Notes: generated by a model from the letters alone, not told the origin. Positions 6,418 to 21,560 are shown, counted from the stretch's first letter. The stretch: 64,000 nucleotides of DNA from Kiritimatiellia bacterium (GCA_045603485.1 JAZUMF010000105.1:1903-65902), one strand, 5' to 3'. Program-made: numbers and translations.

Positions 6418-8143
6418 TCTCCTCAAGAAGCTTTTCAATCTTTTCCTTAAAGGTCTTGCAGGCATCTGTATCAGGTGCCGTTTGGTGCCAATCCTTAAAG
6501 TTTTGTGTAATTGTCAGGAAGAAGCGACGGGCATCATCCTTACTGTCGAAATCAAAATCAGAGGCGATAATCTTTTCGAGCAGATCAAAGACTTCCCGTT
6601 GGCGAACGACCGGCATAGCCGAGTCCACCTCGTTGAATGAGTCCTGTTGCAGATATACGGCATCAAGGAGCTCCGACTTTAGGTAGACGAGGAAGTCCGC
6701 CATTGCGGTACCTTCTTCGCCAACGACCTTAGTCATCTGGAGAACTTCATTGCCGCGACGCAATATGGCGCGAAGTTTTTCTACGCGATCCTGCTCGACA
6801 ACGCTGGAATACTTGCTCCAGCTGTCAAGCGGGTCAATGGCTGGGTAGCGGCGAGCGTCGGAGCGGGCGCGTGAAAGACCGTGGAATGCACCGACTACCT
6901 TGAGGGTCGCTTGCGTGACAGGCTCGTCAAAGTTACCACCTGCAGGTGAAACGGTGCCGCCGATTGTTACGGAGCCAATCGAGCCGTCACGAAGTCTTAC
7001 GCGGCCGGCACGCTCGTAGAAGGCGGCAACGACGGATTCAAGATAGGCAGGGAATGCCTCTTCGCCTGGGATTTCCTCAAGTCGGCCTGACATTTCGCGA
7101 AGGGCTTGAGCCCAGCGTGAGGTCGAGTCAGCCAAAAGAAGGGCGTTGAGACCCATTTGGCGGTAGTAGGAAGCAATCGTGACCGCCGTGTAGACCGAAG
7201 CTTCTCGAGCTGCAACCGGCATTGATGATGTGTTGCAGATAATGACGGTACGATCCATCAGCGAGCGACCCGTGCGAGGATCCTTCATGGCTGGGAATTC
7301 GCGAAGAGTTTCAACGACCTCGCCGGCGCGCTCTCCGCAGGCGGCGATAATTACAACATCAACCTCTGCGTGGCGGCTTGTGACCTGTTGAAGAACCGTC
7401 TTGCCAGCACCGAAGGGGCCGGGAATGCAGTAGGTGCCGCCAAGTGCAACGGGGAAGAATGTGTCGATTGTACGCTGCTGGGTAATCATCGTCTCGGTAG
7501 GGCTGAGACGCTCCTCAAAGCAGCTGAGCGGTACCTTGACAGGCCAACGCTGAATAAGTGTAACCTCCTGCTCCAGGCCGGAATCATTAGCGAGAGTGGC
7601 AATCTTGTCGGTGACTTTATAGGTTCCCTTTGCGGCAATCTCGCGGACTGTCCATGCGCCATCAAGTCCAAACGGTGCCATGATTCGGTGAGCAAAGATA
7701 CCTTCCGGAACGGTTCCCAATGTGTCGCCGGCATAGACTTTGTCGCCGACCTTGACGGACGGGGTGAATTCCCATGAGCTGTCTCTGGGGATAGGCGGGA
7801 GATAGGTGCCGCTCTGCAAAAAGAAGCCACACTCCTCCGCTAGACGGGGAAGCGGATTCTGCAATCCGTCAAAGACCTGTCCGAGAAGACCGGGGCCGAG
7901 CTCGGCAGAGAGTAGGTCGCCCGAGAATTCAACGAGACCGCCGACGGCAAGGCCTGTGGTATCTTCAAAGACCTGCATGTCAGCGAGTGAGCCACGAATG
8001 CGGACGACTTCAGACATTAGGCGACGGGTTGTGCCATTATCGTCCAGAAGCGCATATCCGACCTCGTTTTGTGCGACAGCACCGGAAAACGCCACGGAAA
8101 TCATATTTCCGTTGACCATAGAAATTGTACCAGTTGTTTTCAT
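6401..8143 (-). CDS. atpA: V-type ATP synthase catalytic subunit A
   Basis: 580 aa with Walker [13 protein letters not shown] and the non-homologous insert typical of A subunits. Confidence 0.9.
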
Positions 8144-9285: not shown

Positions 9286-9669
9286 ATTTACTCCTTAATA
9301 AAATAAATGACGCCAATCAAGTCATAATTATAATATTATACCATAAATGGAAAATTAAGACGAAAAGATTATAAATCGAAGAGTGAAAAGCGATTGCAAA
9401 AGTCAATTCCAAATTGACCTTTTATAAGGTGTGCAATTTGTAAATCAGGGCATGATTGACCACTCATTTGTTCCAATGAAATTCATTATTTCGCGCCCAA
9501 AGGGTGATTACGCCTTTTACAGGCGCCTGATTTCACTCGTCACAGCCGCTATAATCTCCCTGCCGCAAGACAAAAAGTCTTGAAAGGGACAATTCATTCA
9601 GAAGCGAGCTGGATTTTTTGCGCTCTTGTTTGTCAATATGTTATATTTGAGATTTGAGGAGATATTAAG

Positions 9670-10389
9670 ATGGTATCAGAGCTTTTTGGAAATGTTATTA
9701 AGGAGTTGCTGCATTTTTGGTGGTTTTTTGTAATTGCAATTGGTCTTAAGATTTTGATTTGTATCGCAAAAAGTCCATCCGGCAAGGGCTCTCGCGGAGA
9801 GAAAATAGCGCCATTAGCAATCTTTCAAAGTCTTGCGTCTCTTAAGGGGGCTCGCGGAGAGAGAATTGTTTCAAGGCGGTTGCGTGATGGTCTGCCGGAG
9901 GAATATAAGATTTTAAATGACATTTACCTTCCGCTTTTAGATGGAACTACAACACAGATTGATCATATCGTTGTATCGCAATATGGTATCTTTGTCGTAG
10001 AAACAAAGGCTTATAGCGGATGGATTTTCGGGGATGGGAAAAGTCCCTGCTGGACTCAGACGATATACAACAAGAAAAGTAAATTTCAAAATCCAATCAG
10101 GCAAAACTATAGGCACATTTGCGCATTGGCTGAGACTCTCGGTATCGATAAATCATATTTTATCAGCGTTGTCGTCTTTACCGGTGACTGTGAATTTAAG
10201 GGTGAGATGCCTAAGGGTGTCATATATTCCCAAGGTGCAGTAGATTACATCCGTCAGTTTACCGCTCCGTTGATTCTTGTTAGGCAGCTTGATGAAATTG
10301 TTTCTGCGATTGAGGAATGGCAAGCTTCAATCAGCGAGGAGCGAAAAGCCAAGCATGTCGAGAATTTGAAAAAACGCCATAACATTTAG
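9670..10389 (+). CDS. NERD (nuclease-related domain) protein with N-terminal TM helix
   Basis: GARGERIVSRRL...YKILNDIYLP....IDHIVVSQYGIFVVETKAYSGWIFG matches the NERD core. The N-terminal ~35 aa are hydrophobic. Sampled GC is ~37%. An internal near-duplicate KGSRGEKI/KGARGERI is present. Confidence 0.7.
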   Translation: MVSELFGNVIKELLHFWWFFVIAIGLKILICIAKSPSGKGSRGEKIAPLAIFQSLASLKGARGERIVSRRLRDGLPEEYKILNDIYLPLLDGTTTQIDHIVVSQYGIFVVETKAYSGWIFGDGKSPCWTQTIYNKKSKFQNPIRQNYRHICALAETLGIDKSYFISVVVFTGDCEFKGEMPKGVIYSQGAVDYIRQFTAPLILVRQLDEIVSAIEEWQASISEERKAKHVENLKKRHNI

Positions 10390-10496
10390 GTTAAATCTTG
10401 CCAATGACCTAAGGGCGACTTTAGGATGACTCAGAGGGGTGGCGGTGCTTCAGGCGCAAACGCTTTTAGGCGAGGGGCTTCTTCTGCTGAAACTCT

Positions 10497-10730
10497 TCAA
10501 TCCGAAAAGTGAAAACCGTCAAACCCGTTTTTGAACATAGCAATCAAGCTTTTTATGACTGCTAAAAAGAGGTAGAAGCCGGCGATTGATTCAAATATAA
10601 ACGGTATCCAAGAAGGTGTTGGGTCATTGAGACAAAACAACGAATAAAGGGCGATCGTGCCACTTATAATCGCATACTCCCACGCGCCTTGGCATGTTTT
10701 TGGAATAAGTTTGAATCTTCTTTTCTTCAT
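10497..10730 (-). CDS. Small two-helix membrane protein (hypothetical)
   Basis: 77 aa with two hydrophobic segments, convergent with the NERD gene. ORF only; no homology recognised. Confidence 0.3.
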   Translation of the reverse strand: MKKRRFKLIPKTCQGAWEYAIISGTIALYSLFCLNDPTPSWIPFIFESIAGFYLFLAVIKSLIAMFKNGFDGFHFSD

Positions 10731-10956
10731 GAAGTAATAATATAAAATTTAAAGAGGAAAAGCAAATGGAATAATGGAGAGTGAAGCCATCATCTCGGCA
10801 AAAAGTGATTTGCCTTTTCATCGCTTGATAAATCCAACATTCTAGACATCTTATTAACGGAAATTTTTTAGTTCTACGACACTGAAAACTATTACGCACT
10901 TACGGCAATCTATACCGAGCGGTATTTATAATGACCGAATAGATAAATATCGGTAT

Positions 10957-11064
10957 CTTACCTTTTACCTCTTACTTCTTACCTTTTACCTTTTACCTTT
11001 CTTTAGGTTTTAGGTAATAGGTAATAGGTAATAGGTTCCGACAATTCGCAAGGCGAATTGGCGG
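10957..11064. repeat. Hairpin element copy A: (CTTACCT-like heptads) - loop - (AGGTAAT)3 - GGTTCCGACAATTCGCAAGGCGAATTGGCGG
   Basis: Direct reading. The left arm is rich in TTACC and the right arm is its complement, GGTAA. The terminal CAATTCGC/GCGAATTG forms an 8-bp stem. Confidence 0.8.
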
Positions 11065-11421
11065 GACACTATGGATACTGCAACACATTTCACTTTTTAC
11101 CTCAATAGGATAAAATTTATGATAGGCGAACTTGAAATCTGCCATTTTCTACACCCATAGATAACACGGCTTTTTTATCATCGCGAACATACATGCAGGA
11201 AGTATGGATTCGATGCCGGATGATATGCTTTCGGCGTTTCCTGCAAGAATCGCTTTTCTCTGTGCGACCAGGGAAGAATCAATTCGCCTTATCGGAATAC
11301 CGCATGCGGTAAACTTATATCCCTTTTGTGAATTTTTCATCAACAACGCCGCAAAATCCAAAAATTCCAATTGCGTCTATCACGTAACAAAAACGAGTTC
11401 GAGACATGAAAACGTGTACGC

Positions 11422-11778
11422 TTATTTCGGATTCAGCTTTTTGAGCGATGCGACCAGGAGACGAATCAGCTCTTCGCAGTCGGTGTAGAGGGACTGATAC
11501 GAATCGCCATCAGGGATGAAACCGGTTTCGTGCAGCAATTCAAGCCAATACAACGTTTCACCGGCTTCTTTGAGTGCGATGGTCTGTTTGGAAATGAAGT
11601 CGTTTCTGGATTGCGCGTACTTGGCTTCCGCCAGATTAGCCCCTATCGACGTGCCGCACCGAAGGATCTGCTTTGACATCGTCGATTCGCGTTTTCCGCG
11701 CAGATATTTATGGAGATTGACGATACGGATGGCAAACGCCTTGGCCTTTGTCAGCATCACCGGGTCGGACATACACAT
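11422..11778 (-). CDS. Four-helix-bundle protein (TIGR02436-type; Avd / 23S-IVS protein family)
   Basis: 118 aa. ...SIGANLAEAKYAQSRNDFISKQTIALKEAGETLYWLELL... matches the conserved core of four-helix-bundle (bAvd-like) proteins. Confidence 0.75.
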   Translation of the reverse strand: MCMSDPVMLTKAKAFAIRIVNLHKYLRGKRESTMSKQILRCGTSIGANLAEAKYAQSRNDFISKQTIALKEAGETLYWLELLHETGFIPDGDSYQSLYTDCEELIRLLVASLKKLNPK

Positions 11779-12107
11779 CTCCTTTCTTAGGAAAACGACA
11801 AACTCCGCACTTCTTACCTTTTACCTCTTACTTCTTACCTTTGTTTAGGTTTTAGGTTAGAGGTAATAGGTAATAGGTAATAGGTTCCGACAATTCGCGC
11901 TTTCCGCGCAGATATTTATGGAGATTGACGATACGGATGGCAAACGTCTTGGCCTTTGTCAGCATCACCGAGTCGGACATACACATCTTCTTTCACAAGA
12001 AAACGACAAACTCCGCACTTCTTACCTTTTACCTCTTACTTCTTACTTCTTACCTTTGTTTAGGTTTTAGGTTAGAGGTAATAGGTAATAGGTAATAGGT
12101 TCCGACA
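11685..12107. repeat. Tandem direct duplication, 208 bp + 215 bp (~93% identity)
   Basis: Units 11685-11892 and 11893-12107 both begin ATTCGCG(T/C)TTTCCGCGCAGATATTTATGGAG. Each contains the 5' 31 codons of the four-helix-bundle gene plus one hairpin element. Unit 2 has an extra TTCTTAC heptad. Confidence 0.85.
11811..11898. repeat. Hairpin element copy B
   Basis: cttcttaccttttacctcttacttcttacctttgtttaggttttaggttagaggtaataggtaataggtaataggttccgacaattcgc. Confidence 0.8.
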
Positions 12108-12122
12108 ATTCGCAAGGCGAAT
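12018..12122. repeat. Hairpin element copy C, abutting the tRNA-Ser 3' end
   Basis: Same element with one extra heptad. It ends in the CAATTCGC-aagg-GCGAATTG hairpin immediately 3' of the tRNA CCA. Confidence 0.8.
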
Positions 12123-12214
12123 TGGCGGAGGGGGTGGGATTCGAACCCACGATGGCCGTAAGACCATGCCTGATTTCGAGTCAGGTACGTTCAACCAGGC
12201 TCCGCCACCCCTCC
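12123..12214 (-). tRNA. tRNA-Ser (anticodon CGA), CCA encoded
   Basis: The reverse complement gives GGAGGGG acceptor pairing with CCCCTCC. The anticodon stem-loop is CCTGA-CTCGAAA-TCAGG with U33 and A37. There is a long variable arm and a GGTTCGAATCC T-loop. Total length is 92 nt. Confidence 0.85.
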
Positions 12215-12288
12215 GCGCTAAAAAGGCTCTAAAAAAGAACCTTTATTATGATACTAAAAAGGGTTGTCTTAGTCAACTTAAAATTCGT

Positions 12289-19469: not shown

Positions 19470-19738
19470 GTAATCTCCTTTTTATATATCAGGATACGAA
19501 ATCAGTTCCATTAAAGATTCGGAACACGCATTCCAATAGAAATCTTTATAAAACCAAATTCGTCTATAGTTTATATTTAGCATAAAGTTTTTGTCAAGTG
19601 ATAATTTCGCATTGTATTGCTACGAATAGCTTTTTTTGCTAATATGCCTTCTCAAGTGACAGGCCTTGCATAAACAATATTGCCAAATACCCCACTTTTT
19701 GGTAATATATTTACTTAAGGGACAGGCATCCAAAACAA

Positions 19739-20455
19739 CAAGGAAAACCAAGAGTCAAGAATATAGTCGAAAGCTACTACCATATAGTAAGCAGATGTAT
19801 CTTCAGTCAGTTTTTGCTGGGGGATACGGATAAAGACATGTTCGTCAAGATGATGCGTACAATAGCCTATTTCAGTGGAATAGATATACTCAACTATTGC
19901 GTGATGGACAACCACTTTCATCTCCTCGTTCATGTACCTGAGCCATCAAAGCCTACAGAAGCACTATTACTAAAACGCATATCCGCACTCTACGGTAGAC
20001 TCCACGCAGCTGACCTTAAGAGCCGCTGGTATGAACTAAAGAAGCAAAACCGACCAGATATTGTCGAAGAAGAGCAGGCGGCATTCATTCGCCGCATGGG
20101 AGATATAACACCATTTATGCAGTGCCTAAAGCAACGCTACTCAGCCTGGTACCGCGCAAGACACGACTACAAACAAGGCACAATGTGGGAAGGTCGTTTC
20201 CGCAGCACACTAGTAGAAGGCACCTCAGAAACCCTCTCCTCAATCTCAGCCTACATCGACCTAAATCCCGTCCGCGCAGGCATAGTAGACGACCCCAAAG
20301 ACTACAAATGGGCAGGCTTTGCCAATGCGCTGAAAGGCGATAGCAAATCAATGGAAGGCATAGCAAAGATGTATGACAAAACAGCTAGTGACACATCCTT
20401 TGCAGATTTGGCGAAAGAATATCGTCTAAAGAAGTCGGAGGCCAAGCGGTCTTAG
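19739..20455 (+). pseudogene. RAYT/IS200-like transposase, degenerate copy (ATG replaced by CAA; 3'-truncated at 20430)
   Basis: It aligns codon-for-codon with the intact copy, but the start is CAA GGA instead of ATG AGA. After ...EYRLK the frame runs into the inverted 3' flank of copy 2, giving KSEAKRS*. Confidence 0.6.
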
Positions 20456-20485
20456 GAAGACAACATTCACACACAACTCCTTGGC

Positions 20486-21343
20486 TCACAGAACGACATG
20501 GCTACGATCCGACTTTGAGCCTATGATGGCGCCGTGTGTGAAGTGGCGTATTTTGCAGCGAAGTATTACCGATAACGGTAACTCGCCTTTTTCATCTATT
20601 ACTTCTTGTACCTTTTCTGGCTCTATTGCATCGGAGCCGCGTACATAGAGTTTTAGACGATATTCTTTTGCCAAATCTGCAAAGGATGTGTCTTTAGCTG
20701 TTTTGTCATACATCTTTGCTATGCCTTCCATTGATTTGCTATCGCCTTTCAGCGCATTGGCAAAGCCTGCCCATTTGTAGTCTTTGGGGTCATCTACTAT
20801 GCCTGCGCGTACGGGATTTAGGTCGATGTAGGCTGAGATTGAGGAGAGTGTTTCTGAGGTGCCTTCTACTAGGGTGCTACGGAAGCGCCCTTCCCACATT
20901 GTACCTTGCTTGTAGTCGTGTCTTGCGCGGTACCAGGCTGAGTAGCGTTGCTTTAGGCACTGCATAAATGGTGTTATATCTCCCATGCGGCGAATGAATG
21001 CGGCCTGTTCTTCTTCGACAATATCGGGGCGATTTTGCTTCTTTAGCTCATACCAGCGGCTTTTAAGGTCAGCTGCGTGGAGTCTTCCATAGAGTGCCGA
21101 TATGCGTTTTAGTAATAGTGCCTCTGTGGGCTTTGATGGCTCTGGTACATGAACGAGGAGATGGAAGTGGTTATCCATTACGCAATAGTTGAGTATATCT
21201 ATTCCGCTGAAATATGCTATTGTACGCATCATCTTGACGAACATCTCTTTATCTGTATCCCCCAGCAAAAACTGACTGAAGATACATCTGCTTACTATAT
21301 GGTAGTAGCTTTCGCCTGCGTTCTTGACTCTTGGTTTTCTCAT
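20486..21343 (-). CDS. IS200/IS605-like Y1 (HUH) transposase, RAYT-like, with C-terminal extension
   Basis: 285 aa with HUH motif HFHLLVH at ~aa 60 and Tyr-containing YSAWYRARHDY at ~aa 135, then a ~135-aa C-terminal extension. Confidence 0.7.
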   Translation of the reverse strand: MRKPRVKNAGESYYHIVSRCIFSQFLLGDTDKEMFVKMMRTIAYFSGIDILNYCVMDNHFHLLVHVPEPSKPTEALLLKRISALYGRLHAADLKSRWYELKKQNRPDIVEEEQAAFIRRMGDITPFMQCLKQRYSAWYRARHDYKQGTMWEGRFRSTLVEGTSETLSSISAYIDLNPVRAGIVDDPKDYKWAGFANALKGDSKSMEGIAKMYDKTAKDTSFADLAKEYRLKLYVRGSDAIEPEKVQEVIDEKGELPLSVILRCKIRHFTHGAIIGSKSDRSHVVL

Positions 21344-21560
21344 TGTTGTCTCCTTGTGGTGAATGTGGCAGACTTTGGGTCTGTCCCTCGGTCAAATATA
21401 TTACCAAAAAAGAAGATGCTTGGCAATAATTTTGTATAGCACTTTCTCGGATGCCTGTCCCCTAGGCAGATATATTACCAAAAAGTGGGATATTTGGCAA
21501 TATTGTTTATATAAGGCCTGTCCCTCAGTAAAGATGTTAGCAAAAAAGGCGGAGCGAATT
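21344..21560. repeat. Three tandem ~60-bp REP-like units upstream of the intact RAYT gene
   Basis: (G)TCTGTCCCTCGG-TCAAATATATTACCAAAAAAGAAGATGCTTGGCAATAATTTTGTAT is followed by GATGCCTGTCCCCTAGGCAGATATATTACCAAAAAGTGGGATATTTGGCAATATTGTTTAT and then AAGGCCTGTCCCTCAGTAAAGATGTTAGCAAAAAAGGCGGAGCGAATTGGCAACATTAATGTG. Confidence 0.75.

Follow-up and report, generated by a model that had tools for sequence, protein, structure and literature searches.

What is the long, heptad-built palindrome that stands three times beside a tRNA-Ser gene of a Kiritimatiellia bacterium, and how did it come to be there? The locus lies in a 64,000-nt stretch of this genome (GCA_045603485.1, JAZUMF010000105.1:1903-65902), referred to below as the window. 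The three copies of the element, A, B and C, lie there on the minus strand together with the tRNA gene and a gene for a small four-helix-bundle (4HB) protein. A preliminary description of this DNA had recognized the copies, their positions and their shared architecture, all of which sequence reading and a repeat search bore out, and had taken the element for either a family resembling miniature inverted-repeat transposable elements (MITEs) or a set of repeated att-like scars. Our analysis favors, with a probability of roughly 0.55, an explanation in which the element serves as a structured 5' leader to a small 4HB cassette and this cassette is an integrase-less islet on tRNA-Ser 3' ends. The DNA examined comprised the window and short metagenomic contigs, and copy counts elsewhere are limited to these. 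All comparison loci, numbered here with the prefix L, were reached via the 4HB gene or the hairpin pattern.

Structure of the element at the tRNA-Ser gene

The tRNA-Ser(CGA) gene (12123..12214, minus strand) encodes its own CCA and was called by ARAGORN and by the Rfam tRNA model (56 bits). Read in the tRNA orientation, the CCA is followed by a GC hairpin (hairpin 1), the heptad palindrome (hairpin 2), GAAGTGCGGAG, a ribosome-binding site and the 4HB gene. In copy C (12016-12130), hairpin 1 (12100..12130) reads UCCGCCAAUUCGC-CUU-GCGAAUUGUCGGA on the tRNA strand and begins within the tRNA 3' end. The imperfect palindrome with heptad periodicity (12016..12099) then runs through (TATTACC)3 TCTAACC TAAAACC, a loop and (AGGTAAG/AAGTAAG)5 into GAAGTGCGGAG. 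The preliminary description had placed an 8-bp terminal hairpin directly 3' of the CCA. The hairpin is real (TTCCGACAATTCGC-AAG-GCGAATTGGCGGA(G) as written on the window strand), but its stem of 12-14 bp is longer than 8 bp, and its right arm (12117-12130) overlaps the final 8 nt of the tRNA, CCA included. The idea that the hairpin is carried along with the tRNA end held up.

Copy B (11808..11898, minus strand) consists of the heptad palindrome and only the left arm of hairpin 1 (11885-11898). The intact 4HB gene has it as its working leader. This gene (11422..11778, minus strand) encodes 118 aa, has AAGGAG before its start and matches PF05635 (2.3e-25) and TIGR02436 (1.9e-30). Copy A (10957-11066, minus strand) lies ~350 nt past the 4HB stop codon and shows the common architecture of heptad arms, loop, (AGGTAAT)3 and GC hairpin. 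Its palindrome (10957..11035) is ~74% identical to that of copy B without gaps, and its hairpin 1 (11036..11066) ends in CCCGCCA, a relic of a tRNA 3' end. The identity with the tRNA end, earlier given as 7-8 nt, is confined to TGGCGG (6 nt), and the hairpin attributed to all copies is present in A and C, with B retaining the left arm alone.

Allowing up to 3 mismatches, (AGGTAAT)3 had 16 overlapping matches in the window, confined to this locus and 1688-1989, and 0 in 100 shuffles. The arms showed a period of 7 by Tandem Repeats Finder (TRF), with head-to-tail units in intergenic sequence, and they hold 2-3 and 4-5 units in L137, B and C. The folding check suggested in the preliminary description was carried out on both strands, and copies A, B and C folded as long imperfect hairpins far better than shuffled sequence did (z -3.6 to -7.7).

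Recurrence of the leader between tRNA ends and 4HB genes

The leader homologues found elsewhere by 4HB look-ups and by the hairpin pattern all have the same orientation, with a tRNA 3' end or tRNA remnant on one side and a 4HB gene on the other. The element is therefore better described as the leader of a gene cassette than as an autonomous non-coding element. A MITE-like family did not fit these observations, since nhmmer detected no further leader copy in the 64-kb window and the homologues were all at tRNA ends upstream of 4HB genes. A search for target-site duplications was likewise negative for the three copies: the sequence to the left of A bears no relation to that left of B/C, and none of the copies is enclosed by a short direct repeat.

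The cassette was met again in related bacteria of Kiritimatiellae-like type and in one further assembly, which may or may not be akin to this strain. This assembly, L137, was found by a metagenome scan with the hairpin. Behind its tRNA-Ser(TGA), hairpin 1 and the palindrome are the same as in the window and are followed by a 4HB gene; nucleotide identity to window 11453-11898 is 94.6%, and a small third hairpin covers the ribosome-binding site. Hairpin 1 also follows tRNA-Ser(TGA) in L131 and L147, with other heptads or none. Two further lineages, represented by the L164/L165/L163/L168/L169/L171 group and by L173, have 4HB proteins 80-81% identical and the same layout: the CCA end of tRNA-Ser(TGA) or a tRNA remnant, a short GC hairpin, heptads and the 4HB gene. 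Their heptads comprise TCTAACC/TATTACC/TTTTACC units, a GC-rich loop and GAGGTAA/GAAGTAA units. Hairpin 1 reads AGCGTGCC-GAA-GGCACGCT in the L164 group and CCGCCAGTTCGCC-GCA-GGCGAACTGGCGG in L173.

Comparison of the three types defined the leader. Hairpin 1 is GC-rich with an 8-14-bp stem, and in two of the three types it pairs with the CCGCCA of the tRNA itself. Hairpin 2 is built of tandem heptads, with T[ACT]T[AT]ACC in its 5' arm and [AG]A[AG]GTAA in its 3' arm, so that each heptad contributes ~6 pairs and 1 mismatch. Hairpin 2 is followed by a GAAGTGCGGA box in two of the three lineage types, and this box is absent in L173. The three leader types found one another by nhmmer (E 1e-8 to 1e-12), and all of them folded as hairpin 1 plus hairpin 2 (z -4.8 to -7.8).

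Exact-protein matches to the window EEP, 4HB, methyltransferase and NERD proteins were not found, and relatives were reached instead through homologues and the V-ATPase E protein. No viral carrier of the 4HB gene was found, and no match to the 23-nt pattern GGTAATAGGTTCCGACAATTCGC was obtained among viral or metagenome contigs. Most homologues of the 4HB protein were on very short contigs; one exact 4HB protein was indexed in 37 collection blocks, 28 of them with contigs <2 kb. The module accounts for the assembly breaks at tRNA-Ser genes in these metagenomes. A general link between (AGGTAAT)n arrays and 4HB genes was considered and rejected, as a 4HB gene was present at just 2 of 119 loci and adjacent to the array at just one.

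Constraint on the two hairpins

The 4HB genes of the window and L173 share 80% of residues and only 36% at four-fold sites, which is near saturation; for the window and L164, identity at four-fold sites is 58%. The heptad classes survive the divergence between the window and L173, a persistence that simple microsatellite drift would not predict. Hairpin 1 showed a compensatory change, from CAATTCGC/GCGAATTG in the window to CAGTTCGC/GCGAACTG in L173 (A-T to G-C). In L164 its sequence is replaced completely, and its position is unchanged. The trailer was also considered as a primer-binding site complementary to the tRNA 3' end, and this was rejected because the L164-type hairpin has no such complementarity.

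These comparisons bear on the alternative that the element is an ordinary heptamer microsatellite, similar to the short tandemly repeated repetitive (STRR) sequences, which expanded around a tRNA trailer hairpin and at most terminates or pauses tRNA transcription. Intergenic heptamers, including TAACTGA, are on record in cyanobacteria, Bacteroidetes and Beggiatoaceae, where they change rapidly in copy number, are often gene-adjacent and have no known function (PMC4679880). In our set (AGGTAAT)3 arrays were widespread in cyanobacteria, Bacteroidota, Clostridia and others. Heptad counts also vary among A, B, C, L124 and L137, with copy A differing between L124 and the window and near-identical copies differing in number, so that the number of heptads evidently drifts by slippage. 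What drift leaves unexplained is that the heptad classes and the order of the two hairpins persist where synonymous sites are near random, and that here the repeats are arranged as a two-arm palindrome whose form and position within a conserved module are both fixed. The order of the arms is also the opposite: among 103 (AGGTAAT)3 arrays of other phyla (L001-L119), a complementary period-7 run lay downstream in 13 and upstream in 0, so that their palindromes are GGTAAT-first, whereas the present ones are TTACC-first. As for termination, neither hairpin is followed by a U-tract (GGAACC or ACC follows hairpin 1), and in the window, L164 and L137 a consensus scan detected no terminator-like site in the stretch from the tRNA to the 4HB gene. 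We consider the microsatellite explanation unlikely.

Duplication and accretion at the tRNA flank

Copies B and C proved to be products of a single local event. TRF identified two units of a 208-bp tandem duplication at 11685..12113 (period 208, 2.0 copies, 93% matches), and the repeat families D1 and D2 agree with it (D2, 11680-11838 and 11888-12046, 94%). The duplication also copied the first 33 codons of the 4HB gene. This fragment (11888..11986, minus strand) is fused to copy B and is visible both as part of a 44-aa open reading frame (ORF; 11852-11986) and in the D2 repeat. The junction at 11888-11899 (CGACAATTCGCG) matches 11680-11691 (CGTCGATTCGCG) within the 4HB gene at 10 of 12 positions, and the joint is an ATTCGCG microhomology between hairpin 1 and 4HB codon ~30. 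Copies B and C are thus one microhomology tandem duplication rather than independent insertions, and three separate insertions need no longer be assumed. As a result, copy C is now upstream of a truncated 4HB duplicate, and copy B is upstream of the intact gene.

The preliminary description had also viewed the tRNA-Ser 3' flank as a hotspot, and the close relatives L120, L124 and L121 all differ exactly there. In L120 (97.8% nucleotide identity over 7.5 kb), homology ends directly after CCGCCAATT, and the sequence continues into a different palindrome with 8-nt periodicity. In L121 (~76% nucleotide identity), a T-run after the tRNA is followed by the next gene, which suggests that the empty site consists of the CCA and a T-run. 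The 4HB module is missing after tRNA-Ser(CGA) in both. L124, which covers the other side (98%), is without window 10482-10940, goes straight to copy A and diverges again past it. Copy A of L124 differs in the number of its heptads, and its hairpin 1 is perfect over 14 bp. Before this hairpin stands GGAAGTCCGCGAGTTCGAAACTTGGCTCTTCCGCCA, which reads as the decayed variable arm, T-arm and acceptor end of a tRNA-Ser. The att-like reading consequently fits copy A, since a decayed tRNA 3' part precedes it in L124, and fails for B and C, which go back to the local duplication. The earlier picture was therefore partly right, in its hotspot and its att-like scars, and was wrong about the MITE.

The 8-nt-period imperfect palindrome of L120 (AACTGNNN ... 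CAGTTTNN, 7560-7661) has a counterpart in L137 (1455-1560) that is 81% alike. It stands directly after tRNA-Ser(CGA) in L120, and in L137 it closes the cassette array after tRNA-Ser(TGA).

Further loci exhibited the module on different tRNA-Ser genes, CGA in the window and TGA in L137, and in different genomic surroundings. L163 and L165 have 882 bp in common at 100% identity, with different genes on both flanks. This unit starts at CGGGGGTTCGAATCC in the tRNA T-arm and ends at GGCCATTCGAAACCGGGTCG, the same end point at which the L164 contig stops. The left boundary of the islet is accordingly either in the T-arm, as in the 882-bp unit, or at CCGCCAATT. Remnants of tRNA 3' ends precede the module in L124, L173 and L171, and T-loop-like TTCGAAA motifs recur in the L124 and L173 remnants. 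The module is thus present or absent between strains, has been duplicated and has left scars. The presence/absence, the differing tRNA-Ser hosts and the tRNA remnants lead us to read the window as two accreted modules: the tRNA with C/B and the 4HB gene, followed by a tRNA remnant with copy A. The 208-bp duplication that produced B and C is later than this accretion. In L163 (2675-2860) and L168, just upstream of the 4HB module, GGCGGTCTTGAAAACCGG, which resembles the anticodon arm of tRNA-Ser(TGA), is separated by ~150 nt of unrelated sequence from a T-arm/acceptor end; ARAGORN calls no tRNA in this split or disrupted gene.

Possible routes of spread

Integrase-less, cis-mobilizable islets flanked by att-like tRNA fragments are known to accrete in tandem at tRNA genes. 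The 4HB module resembles them in its left boundary in the T-arm or 3' end, in the tRNA remnants between modules, in its presence or absence between strains and in the lack of a recombinase gene inside. It differs from them in its very small size (~0.5-0.9 kb), in that the repeated part runs ~100 nt past the tRNA into the hairpins, and in its right end, which is only T-loop-like; no cognate integrase or parent element could be assigned. In our proposal, spread of the module takes place through recombination in the T-arm or at the 3' end of the tRNA. Neither the islet nor the 21 scanned ORFs of the window yielded an integrase, and the recombining enzyme would therefore have to act in trans.

Two genes for Y1 transposases (Y1_Tnp; 19814-20455 and 20486-21343) lie 8 kb from the element. 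These score 52-53 bits against REP_Tyr_transpos, whose cut-off is 80 bits. According to an alternative explanation, the element belongs among the hairpin elements served by IS200/RAYT-like enzymes, similar to REPINs (dimers of repetitive extragenic palindromes, REPs) or palindrome-associated transposable elements (PATEs). The TATTACC heptads would be its recognition or cleavage motif, and the arrays would grow through enzyme activity on single-stranded hairpins. The element is indeed an imperfect palindrome, as in REP/REPIN-RAYT systems. The Y1 genes are flanked by a repeat family with ATATATTACCAAAAA...TTTGGCAATA, TATTACC included, and the same family, as AGGCCTGTCCCC units, adjoins the AGGTAAT arrays at 1668-1989. 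However, the units that flank the Y1 genes (19814-21343) are GCCTGTCCC...TATTACCAAAAA and not the tRNA-element palindrome, which has no GCCTGTCCC unit, bears no GTAG/CGTC tag and has no dispersed copies in the 64 kb. It was found only at tRNA ends with 4HB genes, ordinary tandem duplication accounts for B and C, and no Y1 gene was called on the other loci, all of them short. These points make service by the Y1 enzymes distinctly unlikely.

The genes downstream bear on another alternative. Cargo after the same 4HB module varies (AbiEi_4, RelB or others), and in the window and L137 small co-oriented genes are separated by periodic hairpins or heptad runs. The element could then be a recombination site in an integron-like cassette system anchored at tRNA-Ser: periodic hairpins would lie between promoterless small genes (4HB, small membrane proteins, AbiEi, RelB), and a recombinase would bind them as folded single strands. 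The 8-nt-period palindrome, which stands after the tRNA in L120 and at the end of the array in L137, would suit such a scheme. Nevertheless, the palindrome ends (GGAACC and GAAGTGCGGA) carry no RYYYAAC/GTTRRRY pair, GTTAGAT occurs in L164 only and has no partner, and neither the islet nor the 21 ORFs include an integron integrase. The palindrome is located 5' of its gene and not 3', and the set holds few arrays. We regard an integron-like site as rather improbable. In a broader proposal, tRNA-Ser genes of this clade would anchor arrays of promoterless mini-cassettes, with 4HB, small membrane proteins and toxin-antitoxin-type genes as cargo. The hairpins of 7-8-nt tandem repeats would bound these cassettes and would be the recombination sites of a new capture system, possibly served by the HUH/Y1 enzymes of this genome, with the Avd-like 4HB protein as its commonest passenger or a heptad-binding cofactor. 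This proposal seems doubtful to us. In L137, heptad runs of GAATAAT/GAAGAAT (945-980) and GAATGTT/GAATGGT (1405-1450) bracket an ORF for a 116-aa membrane protein downstream of the 4HB gene.

Expression of the cassette and its relation to known systems

We return to the 4HB cassette with a structured leader. A promoter-like site, TTGACT-17-TATCAT (12248..12276, minus strand), was found by promoter scan upstream of the tRNA, and its sequence is likewise present before the tRNA of L120 and L121. It is the sole promoter-like site on the minus strand from the tRNA to the 4HB gene; between these two genes the consensus scan gave no promoter-like site in the window, L164 or L137. In L173, where only a tRNA remnant exists, TGGTATAAT stands just after the palindrome. 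The 4HB cassette is thus probably promoterless and transcribed by read-through from the tRNA promoter. The two hairpins may separate tRNA maturation from the mRNA and protect the new mRNA 5' end, and RNase III may cleave the long imperfect duplex.

The ORF of the 23S rRNA intervening sequence (IVS) gave the PF05635 family its name. The 23S rRNA IVS of Coxiella, a selfish element with an S23p ORF, is cut out by RNase III (PMC4990558). By analogy, the IVS of Coxiella and Leptospira appears to be the closest counterpart of the cassette. Both contain a PF05635-family ORF that is co-oriented in a stable-RNA unit, lacks its own promoter and is bounded by a long duplex. There are also clear differences. 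The gene here lies in a tRNA trailer and not within a 23S helix, the duplex is one hairpin 5' of the ORF rather than an enclosing stem, the stem is made of tandem heptads, and cleavage by RNase III is only proposed.

Several observations weigh against our explanation. No recombinase is assigned to the module. On its right, the 882-bp unit closes with a sequence that is only TTCGAAAC-like (T-loop-like) and has no displaced tRNA 3' end, and this end appears not to fit the classical att model. The window junction is just CCGCCAATT, so that it could have arisen through microhomology or through homologous exchange among paralogous tRNA-Ser genes. No 4HB gene follows copy A. We infer co-transcription and processing from the absence of consensus promoters in a scan that overlooked the tRNA promoters of L137 and L164 as well. 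The palindrome folds to a similar degree on both strands, with the antisense strand slightly better in 6 of 8 copies, and the fold strengths thus favor sense RNA over neither DNA nor antisense RNA. Reaching loci through the 4HB gene or the hairpin pattern yields a biased sample, in which leaders without both would go unseen. Finally, 4HB genes ~62-63% identical from Paludibacteraceae and Clostridia are in ordinary neighborhoods with no tRNA called. These contexts indicate that the tRNA link is clade-specific and not a family trait, and they ruled out tRNA linkage of the 4HB family as a whole.

The Rfam scan of the locus returned the tRNA alone at or above the gathering threshold; miRNA-like and sX4 matches were far below it. 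No published account of a tRNA-linked 4HB cassette or its leader was found in Rfam or the literature searched, and we group the cassette with two known kinds, the tRNA-anchored islet and the IVS-like passenger of a stable-RNA gene. To our knowledge, PF05635 4HB genes are very numerous, most members have no known function, and the contexts usually cited are the accessory protein Avd of diversity-generating retroelements and otherwise only the 23S rRNA IVS. The module is a second conserved way for these genes to ride on a stable-RNA gene, here with a defined leader. It offers a concrete system for studying how 4HB genes spread and are expressed, and a case in which tandem heptamer repeats are under constraint at a fixed position.

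Sequence around the islet and other repeats of the window

The segment between the V-ATPase genes and the tRNA (9290-12122) has a low G+C content, 35-45% vs 52-58% in the flanks. A NERD-domain gene lies in it (9670-10389) and weakly resembles the defense kinases MAD6 and PglW in their nuclease-like N-terminal parts. The methyltransferase adjacent to the segment has more distant homologues (46-50% identity) whose source names place the host in the Kiritimatiellae. Just before 10481, where homology to L124 breaks, GAGGGGTGGCGGTGC (10434-10448) matches the tRNA-Ser 5' end at 14 of 15 positions in inverted orientation, with ~0.2 such matches expected by chance. The surrounding 10431-10480 was considered as a tRNA-like sequence and rejected, because Infernal gave no tRNA even at E up to 10. 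The strain-specific segment that is absent from L124 (10482..10940) contains an ORF for a 77-aa hydrophobic protein (10497-10730, minus strand).

The spacer between the 4HB gene and copy A (11067..11421, minus strand) has no protein family match, and every frame is broken. A stretch of ~60 nt in it, TTTACCTCAA.AGGA.AAAATTTATGATAGGC...GAAATCTGCCATTTTCT, is kept in the window (11095-11150) and in L124 (105-165), and the sequences on both sides differ. This conserved stretch beside copy A marks either a cassette boundary or the place where a broken ORF ends.

At 19655-21525, the Y1_Tnp genes form a 688-nt inverted duplication (19743-20430 vs 20652-21339, 95% complementary), which is flanked by inverted copies of the AGGCCTGTCCC repeat family. 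The L120 contig breaks inside one of these flanking repeats. The same family also occurs at 1270-2200, a 0.9-kb non-coding region of nested direct repeats in which no inverted repeats were found. Units starting with AGGCCTGTCCCC lie there at 1543, 1668, 1798, 1924 and 2034, together with CACTTAAAGGTTG repeats and two AGGTAAT arrays (1688-1724 and 1951-1989), each with a AATGAAGAATGAATAAT motif after it (1725-1740 and 1990-2005).

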